25,289 nt of DNA from a virus (lineage: Duplodnaviria > Heunggongvirae > Uroviricota > Caudoviricetes): IMG/VR virus record IMGVR_UViG_2698536647_000005. The stretch is one strand, 5' to 3'. Positions 13,307 through 21,834 of the stretch are shown piece after piece; positions within the stretch are counted from its first letter, which is position 1, and each line of letters opens with the position of its first letter. The position numbers were made by a program, and so were the translations under genes. The notes under the pieces are model-generated. The model did no database searches and was not told the origin of the DNA. It worked only from the letters and a program-made list of their open reading frames with translations.

Positions 13307-14143
13307 ATGAAACTTGAAGCTTCACTAAAACACTTTAGCCCTCAGGGTATGCACATCAGCGACGACGTGAAAGGAACCTCTCCGGACCGCCTTACAGGAA
13401 CAGATGTAATGGCGGCAATTGGCACCACCAGCAGCCGTGCGCGCTTCGGACTGGCGGCGTTCTTCGGTAAAGCGGGAATCAGCAAAACGGATGAACAGCT
13501 CGCAGTTCAGGCGCTGGCGCGATATGCGATGGATGTCGCACCGAAGAATGTTCGCAAAGCAGCTGGTGGGCAGTTCGGATGGTGCATGCAGATGTTGGCA
13601 CAATTTGCCTTTGCTGATTATTCACGTTCGGCGGCTACAAGCGTGACGTGTCACAGCTGCAGTGGTACCGGACGAACAACCCGCGAACAGATTACCCGCA
13701 AGGTTTCGTACCCATGGGGTAAAGCTCCATACTGGGCCTGCCGCTCTCGTGCTGTTCGACCGTCTGACTGGGAGCAGTGGATGGAGGTAACAGAGGTTGT
13801 ACCGGCGGTCTGTGATGCTTGCGAAGGCAAGGGAACGATCAGCGCCCGTTGTCGTTGCGGCGGTAAAGGCGAGGTTCTAGACCGCAAGGCCACAAGCGAG
13901 CGCGGCGCGCCGGTGTTTAAAACCTGCGAGCGCTGCAGCGGAAATGGATTTTCTGCGGTGCCGTCTACCGCAGCCTATAAAGTGATACTGAAGCGCGTTC
14001 CGGATCTGCACGTCAGAACATGGACTCGCAACTGGAAACCGTTTCTTGAGGCGCTGGTAAGCATTTGTCAGCAGGAGGAGGGAAACGCCGCAAGAGAATT
14101 TCAATCTGCAACCAGTTTAGGCGAAGAAGGTGACGAAATTTAG
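13307..14143 (+). CDS. Putative late-gene antiterminator (Q-like), Cys-rich with DnaJ-type CxxCxGxG repeats, 278 aa
   Basis: Last gene before a promoter-plus-terminator unit and the lysis cassette, which is the Q position. Three exact CxxCxGxG repeats (CHSCSGTG, CDACEGKG, CERCSGNG) and one variant (CRCGGKG). The functional call rests on position only. Confidence 0.45.
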   Translation: MKLEASLKHFSPQGMHISDDVKGTSPDRLTGTDVMAAIGTTSSRARFGLAAFFGKAGISKTDEQLAVQALARYAMDVAPKNVRKAAGGQFGWCMQMLAQFAFADYSRSAATSVTCHSCSGTGRTTREQITRKVSYPWGKAPYWACRSRAVRPSDWEQWMEVTEVVPAVCDACEGKGTISARCRCGGKGEVLDRKATSERGAPVFKTCERCSGNGFSAVPSTAAYKVILKRVPDLHVRTWTRNWKPFLEALVSICQQEEGNAAREFQSATSLGEEGDEI

Positions 14144-14232: not shown

Positions 14233-14254
14233 AGCCCCTTGCGGGGCTTTTTTA
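14233..14254 (+). terminator. Intrinsic terminator (tR'-like), possibly bidirectional
   Basis: Stem AGCCCC, loop TTGC, stem GGGGCT, then TTTTTT. Abuts the stop codon of the convergent minus-strand gene 14252-15202. Confidence 0.7.
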
Positions 14255-15202
14255 TGGCAGCGAGTTAACGAAAGAACTGAAAAGGGCCTTATCTTTATTG
14301 CTAATTGATTTTTTCAAATGTAGTTGATGATTTAAAGGTTTAAAGTTTTCCTTTGTGAGATATATACATGCTTTCTCAAAACGATCCTGAAGGAATTGAA
14401 ATCTTTCATTCAGCCTGGAAACTTTTAATCCTAATGACATGACCTTCTTCTCAGGAATATCGTCAGGATTGCAATTATTGAGTTCTTCCAGCACAAGGCG
14501 AATATCTCTTTCGAAGATTAGCGCTATGTTATAATCGTTGAGGAGGCATTCAGGATTACGAACAATGCCAATTACTTCGTCGATGAATTGTGGTTTTACA
14601 TTATCCTCAGCATTTTCATCTTCGTTATCGGAAGGTTTTTGAGACATAACATTCGACAACTGCATTTCTTCCTTGGTTTTCCTTCTGGGAAGTAAAACTT
14701 TTCCATCTCCTAAAGCAGCCATACGTTTCAAAGCTTGACTCCCGGCTCGGCCAACTACTTTAGAATCTCTTAAATCTAAAATTTTATGTGCGACCCATTC
14801 TAATGATGGTTCACTGGCTTCGATTTTGGCTTTTGCTTGGTAATGGAGAAAAATATTTTTCTTGGCTTCCTTGAGGGCTGTTAGATATCTGTGGAAATTT
14901 GCCTTTTTCTCGAGGTCAGTGGCTAGGTTTTCAAATGCTATACCGAAGACTTTTGTACCGCAAACGTGACCCAGGTTCGTCTCCAGACCATCCTCAGTAA
15001 GAACAAGAAACCCTTTTTTATGGCCTGTTCGACAGCTCGACTTGCCACACGGGATTTCTTCCGGGAGGTCATCATAATAACCAAAAACATCGGATAATTG
15101 TTGATCGGTCAGTTCCAGCCTGGAATGATAGCTTTCCCGAGCTTGAATTTCTGTCCAGTCATTAATGCGATCAAAGCTATTGCCGTTTTTAATAAAAATC
15201 AT
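14252..15202 (-). CDS. Orphan hypothetical protein, 316 aa, low GC, antisense to the late operon (cargo gene)
   Basis: Uninterrupted 951-nt ORF with an AAGGGA ribosome-binding site. Visibly more AT-rich than flanking phage DNA (my estimate; not computed). Opposite orientation to all neighbours. Contains a C-x4-C ... H ... H-x-C cluster but no motif I recognise. Confidence 0.6.
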   Translation of the reverse strand: MIFIKNGNSFDRINDWTEIQARESYHSRLELTDQQLSDVFGYYDDLPEEIPCGKSSCRTGHKKGFLVLTEDGLETNLGHVCGTKVFGIAFENLATDLEKKANFHRYLTALKEAKKNIFLHYQAKAKIEASEPSLEWVAHKILDLRDSKVVGRAGSQALKRMAALGDGKVLLPRRKTKEEMQLSNVMSQKPSDNEDENAEDNVKPQFIDEVIGIVRNPECLLNDYNIALIFERDIRLVLEELNNCNPDDIPEKKVMSLGLKVSRLNERFQFLQDRFEKACIYLTKENFKPLNHQLHLKKSISNKDKALFSSFVNSLP

Positions 15203-15317: not shown

Positions 15318-15394
15318 TCTTGCTCCCGGCCCTTTAGCTCAGTTGGTTAGAGCGTGCGACTCATAATCGCCCGGTCGCTGGTTCAAGTCCAGCA
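15318..15394 (+). tRNA. tRNA with CAU anticodon, ileX-like (tRNA-Ile2; tRNA-Met not excluded)
   Basis: Cloverleaf folded by hand: acceptor stem GGCCCTT/AAGGGCC, D-arm GCTC..GAGC, anticodon loop CTCATAA, T-arm GCTGG TTCAAGT CCAGC, 3' CCA. Close to E. coli ileX as recalled from memory. Confidence 0.8.
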
Positions 15395-15396
15395 AG

Positions 15397-15470
15397 GGCC
15401 ACCAGACCGCCACTAGCTCATCGGGAAGAGCGGCAACCCAGGTGTTGTGGTACGGGGTTCGAGGCTCCGG
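15397..15470 (+). tRNA. tRNA-like element with a non-canonical anticodon loop (possible pseudo-tRNA)
   Basis: Perfect acceptor stem CCGCCAC/GTGGCGG with discriminator and CCA, a D-arm GCTC-ATCGGGAA-GAGC and a T-arm CGGGG-TTCGAGG-CTCCG. The anticodon arm folds only as stem GCAAC/GTTGT with a 6-nt loop CCAGGT, or as a 4-bp stem with an 8-nt loop; no 7-nt loop is possible. Confidence 0.5.
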
Positions 15471-15482
15471 TGGCGGACCACT

Positions 15483-15558
<76 letters not shown>

Positions 15559-15561
15559 TAT

Positions 15562-15636
<75 letters not shown>

Positions 15637-15856: not shown

Positions 15857-16073
15857 ATTTGTAAGACAACCATCAGGAAGCAATGGCTAATCTCATTGAC
15901 TGCAGGAATAAGTTCGGCGTAATTTATTTCTGTGGTGAATCCTTTCTAAGCGAAAGGGCGTTCCAGCCAACTGCTATCTGCAGGTATGCGCGCGACTTTG
16001 CTGGCTGGAGTAGAGTCACCGGGAGGCACCCGGCACCATGACAACTACAATACAAGTTTCAAATTCCTTGAGA

Positions 16074-16101
16074 GCCTGCCATTAAACGCAGGCCTTTTTT
16101 T
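16074..16101 (+). terminator. Intrinsic terminator
   Basis: Stem GCCTGC, loop CATTAAAC, stem GCAGGC, then CTTTTTTT. Confidence 0.6.
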
Positions 16102-16240
16102 ATGGTTTTGCAAACTGCTGCTACGCTTTGAGTTGTGGGAAGTAACTGAATGCCCGGTGGTTCTCCTGGACCGATAGTGAATCAGCCGATACAGCTTCAC
16201 CTCTGAGCATAAGTCTTACTCACACCTACCTTACAAATAG

Positions 16241-16269: not shown

Positions 16270-16380
16270 GCTTTTTTTATTTCAGGCTCCGGGAACCATC
16301 ATCGACATGACTGCTTGTTAAATCGTCCCGAGGGCCTGACCCCTTACACACAGCTCCCGCCATTACGCGAGGAGATAGAG

Positions 16381-16629
16381 ATGATCCGATATATGCCTGA
16401 CAAAATTGCATCCGCAGTCTCGTATTGCGTGTCCGGCAGTCTTATTTGTGGAGGCGGCATTTTGCAATGGTTGCACGACCTCGACTGGAACAAGGTTGCA
16501 GTGATTGGCGGATTTCTTATCGGCATCGCCACATACCTGACCAACCTTTACTTCAAAAGACGCCAGACCAAGGCATACGAGAAGGCCCTAAAGAAGGGCT
16601 ACATCACCGCGCCACCACAGGATAACTAA
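16381..16629 (+). CDS. S: Pinholin, S21-like, with a dual-start motif (second ATG at 16393), 83 or 79 aa
   Basis: GAGGAG ribosome-binding site. Two transmembrane segments and a basic C-terminus; IATYLTNLYFKRR matches the P21 S21 pinholin signature LTYLTNLYFK recalled from memory. The MIRYM double start is typical of holin/antiholin pairs. Immediately followed by a SAR endolysin. Confidence 0.8.
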   Translation: MIRYMPDKIASAVSYCVSGSLICGGGILQWLHDLDWNKVAVIGGFLIGIATYLTNLYFKRRQTKAYEKALKKGYITAPPQDN

Positions 16630-16630
16630 C

Positions 16631-17170
16631 ATGGCATCGATCAGAGCAAAACTAAGCGCAGCTATGCTATCCCTGATCGCCGCTGGTGCTTCAGCTCCTG
16701 TGCTGTTTGACCAGTTCATCAGTGAGAAGGAAGGCAATGCGCTCGTTGCTGTGATGGATCCCGGTGGCGTCTGGTCACTATGCCATGGCGTAACAGTTAT
16801 CGACGGCAAGCGTGTCGTAAAAGGCATGACTGCTACCGAAGCGCAATGTAAGAAGGTGAACGCGATTGAGCGTGACAAAGCGCTTGTATGGGTCGATAGG
16901 AATATCAAGGTTCCACTGACAGCGCCACAAAAGGTAGGCATTGCGTCCTTCTGCCCGTACAACATTGGTCCAGGTAAATGCTATCCATCGACCTTCTACC
17001 AGCGAATCAATGCCGGTGACCGGAAAGGGGCCTGTGAAGCTATCCGCTGGTGGATTAAAGACGGTGGCCGCGATTGCCGCCTAACCAAAGGCCAGAAGAA
17101 TGGCTGCTATGGTCAGGTTGAGCGACGGGACCAGGAAAGCGCGCTGGCGTGCTGGGGGTTAGACCAATGA
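16631..17170 (+). CDS. R: SAR endolysin (phage lysozyme with N-terminal signal-anchor-release domain), R21-like, 179 aa
   Basis: N-terminal hydrophobic Gly/Ala-rich segment (LSAAMLSLIAAGASAPVL). Catalytic Glu ... Asp ... Thr spacing (EGNALVAVMDPGGVWSLCHGVT) as in T4 lysozyme and P21 R. Start is 1 nt after the holin stop. Confidence 0.85.
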   Translation: MASIRAKLSAAMLSLIAAGASAPVLFDQFISEKEGNALVAVMDPGGVWSLCHGVTVIDGKRVVKGMTATEAQCKKVNAIERDKALVWVDRNIKVPLTAPQKVGIASFCPYNIGPGKCYPSTFYQRINAGDRKGACEAIRWWIKDGGRDCRLTKGQKNGCYGQVERRDQESALACWGLDQ

Positions 17171-17682
17171 AAATTAATCCGGGTCTTATAGGCGTTGTTG
17201 TTATTGCTGTCCTTTCGGTCGCTCTCGCTAAGAGTTGCTCCAACGCCAGTCGCCTTCAGAGCGATAACGACGTTCTGCGAAGTGACAACTCTATGCAGGG
17301 GCAGGTGATCGCCACCCAGGCATTCAACTTCAATCGATTCAATCAGGTTGCAGAACATGCCAACAGGCTAAACTCCCTGATCGACACCAGCACCGAAGAA
17401 ACTGTAATCGAATACCGGGAGATTCTCCGCCGTGAAAAAACCTGTGATCTGCCTGTTCCTGCTGACATTGCTGGTGGGCTGCTCGAATACGCGTACCGTT
17501 TACGTTCCAGCGCAATGCACGCCGATACCGACGGACCTGACGCAGCCGATGATAGTACCGCTGCCGCCGGCTCAATAACGTACTGCCAGGCTGTGCTCTG
17601 GATTAAGCCGCTGCTGGCCGTGATTGAAAAGGGCAATAACAATTTCGCTGGAATTCGTCAAATAGAGAGCGAGCGTCAATAG
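17167..17682 (+). CDS. Rz: Rz-like inner-membrane spanin, about 171 aa
   Basis: ATG at 17167 overlaps the endolysin stop. N-terminal transmembrane helix (LIGVVVIAVLSVALA) followed by a coiled-coil periplasmic domain. Contains an embedded +1-frame Rz1 gene. Confidence 0.8.
   Translation: MKINPGLIGVVVIAVLSVALAKSCSNASRLQSDNDVLRSDNSMQGQVIATQAFNFNRFNQVAEHANRLNSLIDTSTEETVIEYREILRREKTCDLPVPADIAGGLLEYAYRLRSSAMHADTDGPDAADDSTAAAGSITYCQAVLWIKPLLAVIEKGNNNFAGIRQIESERQ
17432..17578 (+). CDS. Rz1: Rz1-like outer-membrane lipoprotein spanin embedded in Rz (+1 frame), 48 aa
   Basis: My translation: MKKPVICLFLLTLLVGCSNTRTVYVPAQCTPIPTDLTQPMIVPLPPAQ, from a GTG start. Lipobox LVGC and a proline-rich C-terminus, typical of Rz1. 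Below the track's length cutoff. Confidence 0.7.
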   Translation: MKKPVICLFLLTLLVGCSNTRTVYVPAQCTPIPTDLTQPMIVPLPPAQ

Positions 17683-17683
17683 T

Positions 17684-17732
17684 CTTTATCCCTAGCAAGG
17701 GATAAAGCAACCATTATCCCCGCTAAGGGATA
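17684..17732 (+). repeat. Two adjacent hairpins sharing the stem core TATCCC / GGGATA, directly after Rz
   Basis: Hairpin 1 (17684-17707): CTTTATCCCT, loop AGCA, AGGGATAAAG, a perfect 10-bp stem. Hairpin 2 (17715-17732): TATCCC, loop CGCTAA, GGGATA. Neither has a U-tail. Confidence 0.4.
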
Positions 17733-17789
17733 GGCGTTACAGCAGACACTCACCTAATGCCTGTTGCCATTCAGCCAAGGAGCCAGCCT

Positions 17790-18035
17790 ATGAAAAAAGT
17801 TAAAGTTACAATTGCTCACCTTGAAGAGCACTACGAGGGTATTGTTCGAGCCGCAAACGTCACATTCCAGGTTATTCAGAATGAAAGTGTGATAGTGAAG
17901 GATTCTTTATCCGGTAAAGCTTCCCATCCCTTCACTAAAATTTACGCTGTCGATGTTGATGAATCAGCTGTACATGTGATGCATGATCGGCCTGATTTGA
18001 GCTGGTTAACAATTACAGCAGAGCTTGTTGAATAG
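17790..18035 (+). CDS. Hypothetical small protein, 81 aa (cargo cassette gene 1)
   Basis: AGGAG ribosome-binding site 6 nt before ATG 17790; the track ORF extends upstream. No motif recognised. Confidence 0.5.
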   Translation: MKKVKVTIAHLEEHYEGIVRAANVTFQVIQNESVIVKDSLSGKASHPFTKIYAVDVDESAVHVMHDRPDLSWLTITAELVE

Positions 18036-18094
18036 TATTTATTTTGCAGCTTCAATTGCTTAGCATTATCTCCGGGTACCCAAAGGAGATAAAT

Positions 18095-18316
18095 ATGTTT
18101 GTTGCAGAAGGCTTGAAGCCTGACCTTGATAATATAGGTTGGGTTATGGGGTGGGGGGTTGTAAGGAATGCCCCGTGGCATTTAGTCGGTGTTTACGCCA
18201 CCAAAGATGTGGCCGAAACTAAGGCAGCCTCACTAGGTGAGGGCTATGAAGCCCATTATGGCTCACATCGGTTAGGCTCTGACGACTTCATCCACCACAA
18301 CTTCACGCGCAGTTAA
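18095..18316 (+). CDS. Hypothetical small protein, 73 aa (cargo cassette gene 2)
   Basis: AAGGAG ribosome-binding site before ATG 18095. Trp/Gly-rich; followed by an intrinsic terminator. Confidence 0.5.
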   Translation: MFVAEGLKPDLDNIGWVMGWGVVRNAPWHLVGVYATKDVAETKAASLGEGYEAHYGSHRLGSDDFIHHNFTRS

Positions 18317-18338
18317 CAAAAGAAGTTGTTCGATATTT

Positions 18339-18364
18339 AGCCTCGCTTATGCGGGGCTTTTTTA
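18339..18364 (+). terminator. Intrinsic terminator
   Basis: Stem AGCCTCGC, loop TTAT, stem GCGGGGCT, then TTTTTT. Confidence 0.65.
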
Positions 18365-18477
18365 TGCGCATCGCACGCGCACACCGTAGAAAGTCTTTCA
18401 GTTGTGAGCCTGGGCAAACCGTTAACTTTCGGCGGCTTTGCTGTGCGACAGGCTCACGTCTAAAAGGAAATGAAAAA

Positions 18478-19155
18478 ATGAATAAAGATATGGTGCTCAT
18501 ATTACGTGACGATGGCCATGAGCTTCAAACGGCTGAGTATACAGCCCGTTATGATCGTGATGGGAAAAGAACGATTGCCATGGGGCTTTATGAAAAGAGT
18601 CCATTCAGTTTCCGCATTGAACGAGTAACAGAAGATAAAGCCACGGGATGGGCTATTGGCGTCAAAGATGGCAAGGTCTTTATCAAAGATGCCTTTATTG
18701 GTAGTGGCATTGTATCTGCGAACTATAACGTGAAGTTGAATATCAACAATAATGGCATAGAGCACGCTGCCGGTATGGCTGTTGGAGTTGAAGATGGGCA
18801 AAGAAAGGCCGAGTTTAAAGCTGAATCCTTGAAGGTAAATGAAGCCGCTCGATCAACCGTCGGAAACGCCGTGGTATCAGCCTCGAAGGTGAAGTTTAAG
18901 CTTGGCGATGAAATGACGCAGGCCGTCATTGATGCTGTACGTGAAAGCGATCTGCTCACGGCAATACAAGTAAATATCGATGCACAAACAGCCTCACTCA
19001 CCGGCCTGAAACAAGCGATGCACGATGCTGTAAACGATGCAATCCGCAACGCGCTAAAGCCTGGAGGCGCTCTCTTGGGGGCTATCTCGCACCGTCTGAC
19101 GATGGACGTTTGGACGTCTAAATGGGTTGGTTTTCGTGTGTCGATGTGTAAGTGA
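18478..19155 (+). CDS. Hypothetical protein, about 225 aa (cargo cassette gene 3, directly upstream of cos)
   Basis: Start at the internal ATG 18478 with an AGGA ribosome-binding site; the track ORF start at 18349 lies inside the upstream terminator. Appears lower in GC than neighbours (not computed). No signal peptide or catalytic motif recognised. Confidence 0.55.
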   Translation: MNKDMVLILRDDGHELQTAEYTARYDRDGKRTIAMGLYEKSPFSFRIERVTEDKATGWAIGVKDGKVFIKDAFIGSGIVSANYNVKLNINNNGIEHAAGMAVGVEDGQRKAEFKAESLKVNEAARSTVGNAVVSASKVKFKLGDEMTQAVIDAVRESDLLTAIQVNIDAQTASLTGLKQAMHDAVNDAIRNALKPGGALLGAISHRLTMDVWTSKWVGFRVSMCK

Positions 19156-19194
19156 TAATTATTATCGTTTGCGGGTCCTTTCCGGCGATCCGCC

Positions 19195-19370
19195 TTGTTA
19201 CGGGGCGGCGTCCGCGCAGATTCTCGCTATTTATGAAAATTTTCAGGCATTTGCCGTTTCCGTTCTTCTTCTCGCTAATTCATTGTTTTAACTGTAAACA
19301 CCCCCTGAAAAGAAAGGAAATGATAAGCCTTAAAAACGGCTAAATAGCCAGAGGGCGTTTCCTTTCTCTG
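19195..19370 (+). other. cos site (cosN plus cosB) of lambda type
   Basis: TTGTTACG GGGCGGCGTCCG at 19195-19214 compared with lambda CGTTACG GGGCGGCGACCT (12-nt cohesive end). Downstream lambda-like elements: GCTATTTATGAAAATTTTC, R3-like CGTTTCCGTTCTTCTTC (19254-19270), CTGAAAAGAAAGGAAA, R2-like CGTTTCCTTTCTCTGTTTTTGT. The nu1 ATG lies 189 nt after the cosN start; lambda has 190. Confidence 0.75.
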
Positions 19371-19391
19371 TTTTTGTGTATGGAGTGAGCT

Positions 19392-19937
19392 ATGGAGGTC
19401 AACAAAAAGCGTCTTTCTGAAATATTTGGGGTCAGCGTGCGAACCATTCAGAACTGGCAGGATCAGGGAATGCCTGTAGCACGTGGCGGTGGAAAAGGTA
19501 ATGAGGTCCTCTATGAATCTTCCGCGGCTATCGAATGGTATTCCGCACGCGACGCGGCGATTGAGAATGAGAAATTACGGAAGGAGGTGGAAGACCTTCG
19601 TCTTGCATCGGAATCCGACCTTCAGCCTGGTACGATTGACTATGAGCGTCACCGCCTCACCCGAGCGCAGGCAGATGCCCAGGAACTAAAAAATGCAAAA
19701 GATTCCGCTGAGGTGGTGGAAACCGCATTCTGCACGTTCGTGCTGTCGCGGATGGCCGGAGAAGTAGCCAGCATTCTTGATGGAGTTCCTCTGTCGGTTC
19801 AGCGGCGCTTCCCGGAGCTGGAAAACCGACATATTGATTTCCTCAAGAAGGACATCATTAAAGCCATGAACAAAGCAGCTGCGCTGGATGAAATAATACC
19901 GGGGTTGCTGAGTGAATATATCGAACAGTCAGGTTAA
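19392..19937 (+). CDS. nu1: Terminase small subunit Nu1, 181 aa
   Basis: Near full-length match to lambda Nu1 as recalled: MEVNKK ... IRTIQNWQ ... GMPV ... RGGGKGNEVLY ... LSEYIEQSG. Confidence 0.9.
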   Translation: MEVNKKRLSEIFGVSVRTIQNWQDQGMPVARGGGKGNEVLYESSAAIEWYSARDAAIENEKLRKEVEDLRLASESDLQPGTIDYERHRLTRAQADAQELKNAKDSAEVVETAFCTFVLSRMAGEVASILDGVPLSVQRRFPELENRHIDFLKKDIIKAMNKAAALDEIIPGLLSEYIEQSG

Positions 19938-21834
19938 GGGGCTGCAGCACTCTGCGCGCGCGGGTCTACTTTCGCTGTACCGACCTGAGCCGCAAACGGC
20001 GGTTGAATGGGCAGACGATAATTACTATCTCCCCAAAGAGTCGGCCTACCAGGAAGGGCGCTGGGAAACGTTGCCGTTTCAACGCGCGATCATGAATGCG
20101 ATGGGTAACGATTACATACGTGAGGTCAACGTTGTTAAGTCTGCCCGTGTTGGCTATTCAAAAATGTTGCTGGGTGTTTATGCGTATTTTATTCAGCACA
20201 AGCAGCGAAATTCCCTTATCTGGCTGCCTACTGATGGTGACGCCGAAAACTTTATGAAGTCGCATGTTGAGCCGACGATTCGCGATATTCCGTCACTTCT
20301 GGCGCTGGCCCCCTGGTATGGAAAAAAGCACCGGGACAATACGCTCAGTATGAAACGCTTCTCCAACGGTCGCGGGTTCTGGTGTCTGGGTGGTAAAGCG
20401 GCGAAAAACTATCGTGAGAAATCGGTCGATGTCGCCGGTTACGATGAACTGGCGGCGTTCGATGAAGATATTGAGAAAGAGGGATCCCCGACGTTCCTGG
20501 GTGATAAACGTATTGAGGGGTCTGTCTGGCCCAAATCTATTCGCGGCTCAACGCCAAAAACAAAGGGGACCTGCCAGATTGAGCGTGCTGCCAGCGAGTC
20601 CGGGCATTTCATGCGTTTTCATGTTGCCTGTCCGCACTGTGGTGAAGAGCAGTACCTTAAATTCGGCGACAAAGAGACCCCGTTCGGGCTGAAATGGACA
20701 CCGGGCGAACCCTCCAGCGTCTTTTACCTGTGTGAACATAATGCCTGCGTCATTAAGCAGCAGGAGCTGGATTTCACTGAAGCTCGTTACATCTGCGACA
20801 CCACCGGGATCTGGACGCGCGACGGTTTATCCTGGTTTTCATCAACAGGCACCGAAATCGACCCGCCAGACAGCGTGACGTTTCACATCTGGACGGCATA
20901 CAGCCCGTTTACCACCTGGGTTCAGATCGTTAAAGACTGGCTAAAAACGAAAGGGGATACAGGAAAGCGTAAAACCTTCGTGAACACCACTCTGGGCGAA
21001 ACATGGGAGCCTAAAATTGGTGAACGGCCTGACGCGGAGCTCATGGCCGAACGCAAAGAGTTCTTCGGGGCATCCGTACCGGAGCGTGTTGCTTATCTGA
21101 CAGCCGGGATCGACTCCCAACTGGATCGATATGAAATGCGCGTCTGGGGATGGGGGCCCGGTGAGGAAAGCTGGCTGATTGACCGGCAGATCATTATGGG
21201 CCGTCATGATGATGAAGCGACCCTCGTCAGGGTGGACGAGGCGATTAACAAAACCTATCTCCGAAAGAATGGCGTGGAAATGTCGGTATCCCGTATCTGC
21301 TGGGATATCGGCGGTATTGACCCCACCATTGTCTACAATCGCTCAAAAAAGCATGGTTTGTTTCGCGTGATCCCGATTAAAGGGGCTTCCGTTTACGGTA
21401 AGCCTGTCGCGAATATGCCGCGTAAACGCAACAAGAACGGCGTTTATCTGACGGAAGTGGGGACTGATACCGCAAAGGAGCAGATTTATAACCGCTTCAC
21501 ACTTCAGCCGGAAGGGAGTGAACCTCTTGCCGGTGCCGTGCATTTTCCCAATAACCCCGAAATTTATGATCTGGCTGAGGCGCAGCAGCTTACTGCTGAG
21601 GAGCAGGTTGAAAAATGGGTGGACGGGCGTAAGAAAATCGTCTGGGACAGCAAAAAGCGACGAAATGAGGCGCTGGACTGCTTCGTGTACGCGCTGGCTG
21701 CCCTGCGGATCAGTATTTCGCGATGGCAACTGAATCTTGATTCACTGCTCGCGAGCCTACTGGAGGAAGAGGGGAACCGGACCAATAACAAAACCCTGGC
21801 TGATTATGCCAGGGCATTATCTGGAGATGAATAA
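19912..21834 (+). CDS. A: Terminase large subunit A, 640 aa
   Basis: Collinear high similarity to lambda gpA (MNISNSQV ... PQTAVEWAD ... [28 protein letters not shown] ...). GTG start 26 nt inside the nu1 3' end, as in lambda. Confidence 0.95.

Follow-up and report, generated by a model that had tools for sequence, protein, structure and literature searches.

We analyzed the region between the lysis gene Rz and the cohesive-end site cos in a viral DNA stretch of 25,289 nucleotides (nt) (Caudoviricetes; IMG/VR record IMGVR_UViG_2698536647_000005), the whole of which we call the window. The window is a lambdoid prophage, best described as phi80/HK225-like, and positions 17790-19155 are best explained as the accessory slot of its Q-dependent late operon. 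As an earlier note on this DNA had seen, the slot holds three consecutive plus-strand open reading frames (ORFs), each with a good ribosome-binding site, between the lysis cassette and cos; Rz ends at 17682 and cosN occupies 19203-19214. Each of ORF1, ORF2 and ORF3 belongs to a conserved protein family and they are therefore real genes rather than chance ORFs. Sequence comparisons indicate that the region is a mosaic of two independently mobile modules and not one cassette, with Module 1 made up of ORF1-ORF2 and Module 2 of an intrinsic terminator, a 104-nt structured RNA leader and ORF3, a protein whose N-terminal domain is related to the phi80 counter-defense protein AtiEcA. The features of the slot are as follows, with protein lengths in amino acids (aa).

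ORF1: 17790-18035, plus strand, 81 aa, AAGGAG 7 nt ahead of the start codon
ORF2: 18095-18316, plus strand, 73 aa, ribosome-binding site AAAGGAGA
Intrinsic terminator: 18339-18364, plus strand, stem-loop at 18339-18358 and then a T-run to 18364
Structured RNA leader: 18366-18469, plus strand, 104 nt
ORF3: 18478-19155, plus strand, 225 aa, ribosome-binding site AAAGGAAA
cosN: 19203-19214, cohesive end GGGCGGCGTCCG, right-hand limit of the cargo slot

cosN was placed by aligning the window with base 1 of phi80 and of N15, whose initial 12 bases carry a sticky-end annotation, and it lies 48 nt beyond the end of ORF3, which stands in sense orientation downstream of Q and the lysis genes. The terminator reported earlier between ORF2 and ORF3 was verified, having an 8-bp stem with six GC pairs followed by TTTTTT, and it abuts the leader; no terminator was found downstream of ORF3 before cos. 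A scan of 17600-19450 for sigma-70-like consensus sites returned 0 against 3.1 expected by chance, and no credible minus-strand gene was found in 17700-19200. The lower GC content attributed to ORF3 relative to the head genes holds, if modestly (ORF3 47.5% and ORF1 40.7% vs 51-57% for Nu1, TerL and the downstream head genes).

We observed that the two modules occur in different combinations in related phages. Positions 17601-19070 of the window are 99.9% identical to an Escherichia coli prophage of strain VREC0864; this identity breaks off at 19070, and phi80-type sequence is back from 19145 on, with 98-99% identity to the phi80 cos flank. Phage mEp237 has Rz, ORF1, ORF2, the terminator and the leader in common with the window at 99.9% and carries a different gene after the leader. 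In Yokenella-type prophages Rz is followed by ORF1-ORF2 and then by an FRG-domain gene, and a Citrobacter prophage has, after ORF1-ORF2, the leader and then a gene for a 485-aa glycosyltransferase-like protein, so that the third gene after ORF1-ORF2 may be of the FRG-domain, the glycosyltransferase-like or the gp66 type. The leader and an ORF3-type gene are present without ORF1-ORF2 in HK639, where the genes for the major tail protein and the tail chaperone flank them, with annotated terminators on either side. The three genes had been taken for a unit that comparison with related prophages might show to be gained or lost as a whole; what the comparison gave instead was two separate modules, with ORF1-ORF2 preceding varied third genes and leader plus ORF3-type genes occurring without ORF1-ORF2.

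The exact 225-aa ORF3, with ORF1-ORF2 ahead of it, occurs on no fewer than 24 public contigs, among which the holin, lysozyme and Q modules vary. Phage HK225 (JQ086371) retains at 45034-45129, directly after Rz, just the last 32 codons of an ORF3-type gene, with 100% protein identity to the tail of the window ORF3; this remnant is a deletion scar, and the ORF3-type gene is dispensable. ORF2 directly follows ORF1 at every ORF1 locus that we fetched and is found by itself in Pseudomonas. An apparent case of ORF1 without ORF2 in Citrobacter was rejected when tblastn found an uncalled ORF2 homolog, possibly interrupted. In this Citrobacter youngae prophage (locus L012, 5255-5515) a hidden Markov model (HMM) of ORF2 covers only positions 1-32 in one ORF and the tblastn match spans 66 aa, and the homolog may be a frameshifted copy. 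With the Rz-cos slot built from leader-bounded units, unrelated genes come to have upstream DNA that is 91-98% identical.

Reaching from GCGCAUCGCACGCGCA to CUAAAAGGAA, the leader provides ORF3 with its Shine-Dalgarno (SD) sequence. The approximately 104 bp that separate the terminator from the start of ORF3 retain 91-98% identity across many phages whose flanking genes are unrelated. The copy analyzed here, with a covariance-model score of 118.7 bits (E-values from this model are rough), is the sole full-scoring one in the window. A weak minus-strand match at 18395-18467 (18.4 bits) is an echo of the near-palindromic PSD and P2 stems listed below and not a second element. Numbering the leader from window position 18366 as position 1, we found six helices, all on the plus strand.

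P0: leader positions 1-4 with 12-15, plus strand; 5' hairpin, GCGC at 18366-18369 with GCGC at 18377-18380
P1 (pseudoknot 1): 6-11 with 78-83, plus strand; the P0 loop at 18371-18376 kisses the internal loop GUGCGA at 18443-18448
P4 (pseudoknot 2): 24-29 with 60-65, plus strand; GAAAGU at 18389-18394 with the apical loop ACUUUC at 18425-18430
PSD: 29-33 with 98-102, plus strand; UCUUU at 18394-18398 with AAAGG at 18463-18467 (the SD of ORF3), forming the base of the long hairpin
P2: 39-47 with 84-92, plus strand; 18404-18412 with 18449-18457, the inverted repeat of the earlier note
P3: 48-53 with 72-77, plus strand; GGCAAA at 18413-18418 with UUUGCU at 18437-18442, enclosing the apical stem-loop

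When 61 distinct copies were aligned by MAFFT from sequence alone, 91.9% of the cells paired, compared with 29-51% when the partner strands were slid, and a second alignment of 72 distinct copies, fitted to the nested helices only, gave 91.3% vs 30-49%. Two-sided changes were found at 26 of 35 pairs among the 72 copies, in comparison to 14.4 ± 1.5 in shuffled controls (none of 500 reached the observed value) and 6-9 with slid partners. Base pairs in this element are kept by compensatory changes beyond these controls, as is expected of a structured cis-regulatory RNA. PSD is 98.6% paired and has the compensatory variants CCUA/UAGG and UUUUG/CAAAA in divergent copies; P2 shows two-sided changes at all nine pairs across subtypes, with 92% of cells paired (in subtype C it reads GATGA.CCTTG/CAAGG.TCATC); and P3 shows them at five of six pairs and includes a G.U wobble (18413/18442) that pairs on the plus strand only. 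The minimum free energy fold of the window copy yields P0, PSD, P2 and P3 and leaves the partners of P1 and P4 unpaired in loops. P0, whose 7-nt loop AUCGCAC holds the 5' strand of P1, is invariant in the 72 distinct copies and offers no covariation evidence.

The two pseudoknots covary as well. P1 is 99.8% paired, although it was absent from the model used to align, and occurs in six covarying versions (TCGCAC/GTGCGA, TCTCAC/GTGAGA, TCACAC/GTGTGA, CCGCA/TGCGG, CGCTC/GAGCG and CGCCC/GGGCG). At least ten covarying versions of P4 were found, among them GAGAGT/ACTCTT, CGAGAG/CTCTCG, CCCGAG/CTCGGG, CACAGAA/TTCTGTG and CTCAGAA/TTCTGAG, with two-sided changes at all six pairs; the MAFFT and covariance-model alignments shift P4 by one column from subtype to subtype, so that the value of 73-75% paired obtained from them understates the conservation of this helix and the per-copy table is the better guide. 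A 9-bp inverted repeat ahead of ORF3 had been proposed earlier as an operator or attenuator. The repeat exists, at 18404-18412 (GTGAGCCTG) and 18449-18457 (CAGGCTCAC), which is 3 nt and 1 nt away from the 18407-18415 and 18448-18456 first assigned to it, and a regulatory role is supported, with the repeat acting as helix P2 of an RNA leader and not as a DNA operator.

Searches of Rfam 15 returned no family at the gathering threshold in 18366-18469, and at E <= 10 only chance-level matches centered on the terminator. A resemblance to the RfaH ops/JUMPStart element (GGCGG...GTG) was considered and rejected, as subtype C lacks it, and a consensus site for integration host factor (IHF), sought in the leader by eye, was not convincing. 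The leader was not found in Rfam, GenBank annotation or the searchable literature, in which we looked for a published RNA motif ahead of rha and came up empty, which does not disprove that one exists. Henthorn and Friedman (1995) reportedly discussed, in relation to IHF, sequence that is conserved ahead of rha in phi80 and in P22, and an earlier partial description is therefore possible.

The leader is widely distributed. The covariance model identified 102 copies in 100 fetched loci, a 16-nt pattern from the leader 5' end occurs in at least 120 IMG/VR contigs, and a stricter pattern was found in 24 species-representative genomes, nearly all of them Enterobacterales. With the rha-type copy of phi80 as query, blastn matched 155 phage records, nearly all without an annotated feature at that place, including HK620, HK106, HK639, Sf101, CUS-3, g341c, phages of Klebsiella, Enterobacter, Hafnia and Salmonella, and 73 Stx2a- and 4 Stx1a-converting phages. 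Copies fall into at least three sequence subtypes and some more divergent forms. The 3' end always reads CUAAAAGG(A/U)A; the start codon lies 7-11 nt past AAAGG in 105 of 110 distinct copies, and a terminator abuts the leader in 51 of the 110. The genes that follow are most often those for Rha (44) and gp59/DUF1983 proteins (38; the gp59/gp66 family follows 38 of 114 leader copies), then 485-aa GT2-like proteins (10) and HNH_3 proteins (5), and more rarely P22_AR_N antirepressor-like proteins (4), KilA-N/P63C proteins (4), T5orf172 and small unknown proteins. Two copies of different subtypes occur together in phi80 (loci L005/L006) and in loci L049, L133, L095, L101, L045 and L032; those of phi80, one before rha and one before orf66, are 68% identical, and divergence of such paired copies may be needed to avoid recombination between them.

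Profile and alignment searches identify ORF3 as a modular late protein of the N15 gp59/phi80 gp66/HK639_13 family in which four parts are joined: an AtiEcA-like domain, a J-like segment, a helical segment predicted downstream of it, and a C-terminal tail. Three of them have the following coordinates.

ORF3 residues 3-55: 18484-18642, plus strand, AtiEcA-homologous domain
ORF3 residues 77-133: 18706-18876, plus strand, segment like the C-terminal part of the central tail fiber J
ORF3 C-terminal tail KPGGALLGAISHR and 19-aa extension: 19057-19155, plus strand

ORF3 belongs to phrog_29765, and its relatives include N15 gp59, phi80 gp66 and HK639_13, of which the first and last were matched by tblastn. 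It has the leader ahead of it, the late-operon location and the G-VFIKDA-I motif (GKVFIKDAFIG at residues 65-75) that are traits of the N15 gp59/phi80 gp66 family. We recovered 359 homologs, mostly of 150-350 aa and from prophages of Enterobacter, Salmonella and Escherichia, which the Prokaryotic Genome Annotation Pipeline (PGAP) labels mostly as 'DUF1983' or 'phage tail tip fiber protein'. The statement that no protein of the three has a recognizable motif proved wrong for ORF3, which passes the Pfam model PF09327 (Phage_Tail_Tip; 26.4 bits, cut-off 22) over profile positions 14-74 of 139, and its homologs carry the same domain. The family profile matches residues 1079-1126 of 1204 in the F2-pyocin tail fiber (E 4.7e-5) and, in two J-like proteins, residues 1031-1075 of 1172 and 920-1047 of 1148, so that ORF3 residues 77-133 align with the C-terminal fifth of the solved fibers. 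This J-like part is the counterpart of the stretch of J against which Tai systems act. ORF3 is not the structural tip protein J itself: J exceeds 1100 aa, while ORF3, at 225 aa, lies between Rz and cos rather than in the tail cluster and has no hub, fibronectin type III (FNIII) domains or receptor-binding domain, and is therefore no tail tip protein in the structural sense.

The C-terminus of ORF3 is unusual. Family members end in ..PGG(x)(I/L)(W/L/Y)..R with an immediate stop; ORF3 has KPGGALLGAISHR with the usual stop out of frame, and its reading frame extends by 19 residues through DNA that normally does not code, immediately ahead of cosQ, its last 10 nt overlapping the phi80-type cos flank (homology from about 19145). 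Its last 32 aa are identical to the remnant after Rz in HK225. We considered whether this end is a one-off junction artifact and rejected this, given the exact protein on the 24 or more contigs and the tail in HK225; the variant is an established allele and not a sequencing accident.

In phi80, the slot between Rz and cos belongs to the late operon under Q control and contains orf62-66, that is, rha, taiEcA, atiEcA (orf64, 76 aa), orf65 and orf66 (He et al. 2024, PMC11364771); the slot with its Tai and Ati genes bears out the earlier description of this place as a cargo hotspot at the lambdoid right end. taiEcA lies on the minus strand and is expressed in the lysogen, and its product blocks the tail assembly of other phages, whereas AtiEcA is a late-operon counter-defense protein that neutralizes this Tai inhibition of tail assembly (PMC11364771). 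A cognate Tai-Ati pair interacts in a two-hybrid assay, and deletion of orf62-66 leaves phi80 viable (PMC11364771).

Several alignments identify residues 3-55 of ORF3 as homologous to AtiEcA. BLASTP aligned the ORF3 N-domain with AtiEcA at 17 identities in 35 positions (E 9e-7), hhalign assigned the pair a probability of 78.9%, and AtiEcA aligned in the same register with the N-domains of the homologs P0224 (E 5e-4) and P0216 (E 0.005). An HMM of twelve N-domains built without AtiEcA retrieved AtiEcA over the full domain (E 1.1e-8, 34.4 bits) from a database of 13,030 stop-to-stop ORFs, in which all other matches were gp59-like proteins and no false positive occurred. A first HMM, made from the heterogeneous N-terminal columns of alignment A2, missed AtiEcA, which only the curated Ati-like alignment found; tblastn of AtiEcA against the window likewise missed the ORF3 match, though BLASTP and the HMM saw it. 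Besides this homology, ORF3 resembles AtiEcA in occupying the same Rz-cos slot of a Q-dependent late operon, just ahead of the packaging genes. It differs in that AtiEcA is a stand-alone protein encoded beside a divergent tai gene, whereas ORF3 fuses the domain to the J-like segment, helical region and C-terminal tail, and the window has no adjacent cognate tai gene on the opposite strand. N15 gp59, phi80 gp66 (ORF x171.28), HK639_13 and mEp237_062 are like ORF3 in position, leader, G-VFIKDA-I motif and C-terminal ..PGG.. tail; phi80 gp66 is unlike it in having the N-module MGHKIITLSGAA... in place of the Ati-like one, and the tail of ORF3 is stop-shifted, with its 19 extra residues.

Homologs of TaiEcA (~28% identity, minus strand) adjoin a plus-strand ORF of 96-111 aa in Salmonella phage FSL SP-016 (locus L009, 533-2384) and in loci L131 and L167, and in all three this ORF is followed by a leader, a gp59/gp66-type gene and a glycosyltransferase-like gene; from this layout, a Tai locus and leader-preceded cargo are recurrent neighbors. 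Two annotations in this neighborhood are probably artifacts. The phi80 (JX871397) coding sequence PHI80_65 (locus L006, 3230-3529, minus strand) lies antisense over the leader (~3236-3350) upstream of orf66 and is probably not a real gene; no phenotype was seen on its deletion by He et al. (PMC11364771). PGAP attaches the name 'Fur-regulated protein' to phi80 gp66 homologs (locus L004, 2639-3367, and other E. coli genomes), and the phi80 record gives this label to the neighboring orf64 (AtiEcA), which suggests an unsupported annotation carry-over.

The same searches identify ORF1 (phrog_2571, 19 close homologs) as a free-standing copy of a beta-rich domain that is found inside N15 gp59/phi80 gp66-like modular proteins. 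A profile search with ORF1 recovered 58 cluster representatives, many of which are proteins of 200-344 aa with the domain embedded. In P0221, P0224 and P0232 an Ati-like N-domain is followed by the ORF1-like domain, a helix and ..PGGLLYKR; in P0227 the ORF1-like domain stands between a phi80-gp66-type N-domain and the tail; and in P0212, P0218 and P0211 it occurs with the G-VFIKDA motif. Because the domain is embedded in proteins that have an Ati-like N-domain and a PGG tail, we regard ORF1 as a module of the ORF3 family. ORF2 is the conserved partner of ORF1 and has a confident predicted fold, which matched no known fold and no toxin or antitoxin. Sequence-profile searches of the PDB gave nothing for ORF1 or ORF2, NCBIfam had no match for any of the three proteins, and profile comparisons of ORF1 and ORF2 with AtiEcA, and of all three ORFs with TaiEcA, were negative.

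Our preferred reading, which we put forward tentatively and with somewhat less than even confidence, is that Module 2 is late-expressed, translationally gated counter-defense cargo. From the gene models, mosaicism, homologies, RNA pairings and the location of the SD inside the basal helix, we infer expression timing, translational gating and an anti-Tai function as follows. ORF1-ORF3 would be transcribed within the Q-antiterminated late transcript, as the sense orientation, the lack of a promoter-like site in the scan and the match with phi80 suggest. In this transcript the long hairpin of the leader (PSD, P2 and P3) would pair the SD AAAGG with UCUUU, and P1 and P4 would clamp the hairpin. 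The clamped hairpin may then limit or condition 30S binding, and translation of ORF3 would be gated at initiation whatever RNA polymerase reads through. Made late, ORF3 would most likely protect tail-tip assembly from Tai-like defenses encoded by the host or by co-resident elements; its Ati-like domain, and a J-like segment serving as decoy or for oligomerization, would let it bind such inhibitors and/or act as a decoy for them. ORF1 probably works in the same process.

Several observations weigh against this proposal. Deletion of phi80 orf66, a relative of ORF3 without the Ati-like domain, had no phenotype in the Tai assay (PMC11364771). The similarity to AtiEcA spans just about 50 residues, and that between ORF3 and J is detectable at the profile level only. 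The window contains no Tai homolog (the best TaiEcA match by tblastn has an E-value of 4), so the autoimmunity rationale from phi80 does not apply here. The C-terminus of ORF3 departs from the family consensus, and an AlphaFold2 monomer model from a 58-sequence alignment was uninformative (mean predicted local distance difference test score 40) and was not used for a fold search. The leader structure is predicted from covariation and folding, and its nested fold alone is just modestly more stable than shuffled sequence (z -1.97).

We also weighed other explanations of ORF3. It could, possibly together with ORF1, be a non-essential virion accessory such as a small trimeric fiber or tail-tip decoration, with the conserved C-terminal tail docking and the exchangeable N-terminal modules binding surfaces. 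The J-like fiber motif would fit this, as would the many alternative N-modules of the family, which include an FNIII-like 'VEWKWP' type as in receptor-binding proteins, the location of the HK639 homolog inside the tail cluster, with the major tail and tail chaperone genes as neighbors, the constant presence of ORF3-type genes in the late operon, and the poor monomer model, which is expected for an intertwined trimer. We nevertheless consider a virion role unlikely, given that phi80 is viable without orf62-66, that the gene is absent from HK225 or reduced there to the 32-codon remnant, that the N-domain is homologous to a non-structural counter-defense protein, and that terminators and a predicted translation-gating leader around a gene would be unusual for stoichiometric structural genes.

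A separate question, compatible with a counter-defense role for ORF3, is whether the leader does more than lock translation passively, as a riboregulator that responds to a ligand or protein, as a ribozyme or site of processing, or as a put-like element that acts on RNA polymerase. It combines long invariant unpaired stretches (GCGCA, UUUCAG and CUAAAAGG) with two pseudoknots, which resembles riboswitch or ribozyme cores, directly follows terminators in about half of its copies and stands ahead of functionally unrelated genes. However, no Rfam family matched even at E <= 10, the downstream genes share no ligand logic, and a start codon at SD spacing invariably marks the end of the element, an indication that initiation is what it controls; we therefore assign a low probability to these functions.

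It is very unlikely that ORF3 is itself a defense, in the form of a J mimic that co-assembles with the tail fiber of competing phages and poisons it, with a Tai-like outcome. Its J-like segment does match the region targeted by Tai systems and its location is a known immunity hot spot, but expression in the lysogen is unlikely for a sense-oriented gene of the late operon that lies behind a terminator with no promoter-like site found and with its SD paired; in addition, the phage's own J would be poisoned, and ORF3 has no homology to TaiEcA. The suggestion that two small proteins followed by a larger one form a toxin-antitoxin or exclusion module did not survive, either for ORF1-ORF2 or for all three genes, and we now regard it as highly improbable. 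Although ORF1 and ORF2 are small adjacent genes kept as a pair in a cargo hot spot, with ORF1 evolving faster (45-64% identity) than ORF2 (81-88%), no toxin-antitoxin or defense family was found in NCBIfam, Pfam or PADLOC-DB 2.0 (0 defense families for the three proteins at E <= 1, in a library that predates the description of Tai), and we recognized no domain or fold of a type II toxin or antitoxin. The two genes are separated by a 59-nt gap, have separate SDs and, in the sigma-70 consensus scan, no promoter-like site, unlike a compact bicistronic operon with its own promoter; the ORF1 domain is a module of fiber-like late proteins; and the signal peptides or membrane segments usual in exclusion proteins are absent. 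Equally improbable is that the conserved 104 bp act as DNA (a recombination linker, operator or promoter) and not as RNA, for although they mark module junctions with an identity (91-98%) far above that of the flanking genes and probably also favor the exchange of modules as a side effect, five of the six helices show compensatory changes (P0 being invariant), G.U wobbles pair on the gene-sense strand only, divergent subtypes retain pairing and not sequence, and no promoter-like site was found.

SD-sequestering pseudoknotted leaders are known from the T4 gene 32 leader, the S15 and S4 operators, and the SAM-II and preQ1 riboswitches. The element described here is like these in that a cis-acting 5' structure, predicted to be stabilized by pseudoknots, includes the ribosome-binding site; it is unlike them in having no Rfam match, in combining a 5' hairpin that kisses an internal loop with a strand-to-apical-loop pairing, and in serving many unrelated genes. 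A moron was reportedly defined by Juhala et al. in 2000 as a promoter-gene-terminator unit inserted between late genes. ORF3 is moron-like as an optional gene that is bounded by terminators (in the window, an upstream one was found) and occurs at differing late-operon positions in different phages, and differs in that it has no detectable promoter of its own, carries a conserved translational leader instead and appears to depend on the late transcript.

A bolder proposal, conceivable though we hold it to be somewhat unlikely, is that the 104-nt element is the first member of a new class of doubly pseudoknotted riboregulators that respond to some factor and gate the 'arms-race' cargo of lambdoid late regions, and that ORF3-type proteins are fused counter-defenses combining an Ati domain with a J decoy. 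If this were true, the gated cargo would comprise Rha, antirepressor, KilA-N, HNH, glycosyltransferase-like and gp59-like genes, including those of phi80, HK620 and Stx-converting phages, and the large 'DUF1983 / tail tip fiber protein' family would gain a function.

The hot spot and the Tai/Ati concept were already known, and the gp59/gp66 family was known as hypothetical proteins only. Four findings are new: that the ORF3 N-domain and AtiEcA belong to one modular family, that ORF1 is another of its modules, that a J-like segment occurs in this setting, and that the leader is a structured RNA. Hundreds of small 'phage tail tip fiber / DUF1983' proteins, together with N15 gp59 and phi80 gp66, are linked in this way by homology to the only characterized anti-Tai protein, which provides a testable function for a large misnamed family of which AtiEcA and ORF1 are free-standing modules. 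Support for the leader as a structured RNA is good, and it occurs in phages that are among the best studied, being present upstream of phi80 rha and in HK620, HK639 and Stx1- and Stx2-converting phages, and it appears to control the translation of antirepressor-type and counter-defense cargo. The slot in which it lies is one where phage-phage and phage-defense conflicts are settled, and in Stx phages it is within the toxin-bearing late operon. The probable artifacts PHI80_65 and 'Fur-regulated protein' can be corrected in annotation.

The neighboring features of the window are as follows.

Q antiterminator: 13307-14143, upstream of the lysis genes
Three tRNA genes: 15328-15633, between Q and holin, in the pR' late leader region
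STnc100-type late leader: 15899-16105, Rfam match of 53.1 bits, between Q and holin
Holin: 16315-16629
Endolysin: 16631-17170
Rz: 17149-17682, phrog_214, with Rz1 embedded
Nu1: 19392-19937
Large terminase TerL: 19912-21834

By the annotation of the near-identical VREC0864 prophage, the tRNA genes are those for Ile, Thr and Gly. Directly 3' of the Rz stop, at 17684-17732, we observed two tandem and similar palindromic hairpins, neither of which has a T-run. The first, CTTTATCCCT-agca-AGGGATAAAG, has a perfect 10-bp stem, and the second is TTATCCCCGCTAAGGGATA. Both are identical in mEp237 and the VREC0864 prophage, and they could be a protein-binding or RNA-processing site. Finally, the minus strand carries a 316-aa ORF at 14252-15202, in the interval from Q to the tRNA genes. 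The VREC0864 prophage has the same gene under the label hypothetical. The ORF had no match in Pfam or PADLOC, and its place and orientation are typical of lysogen-expressed defense cargo.

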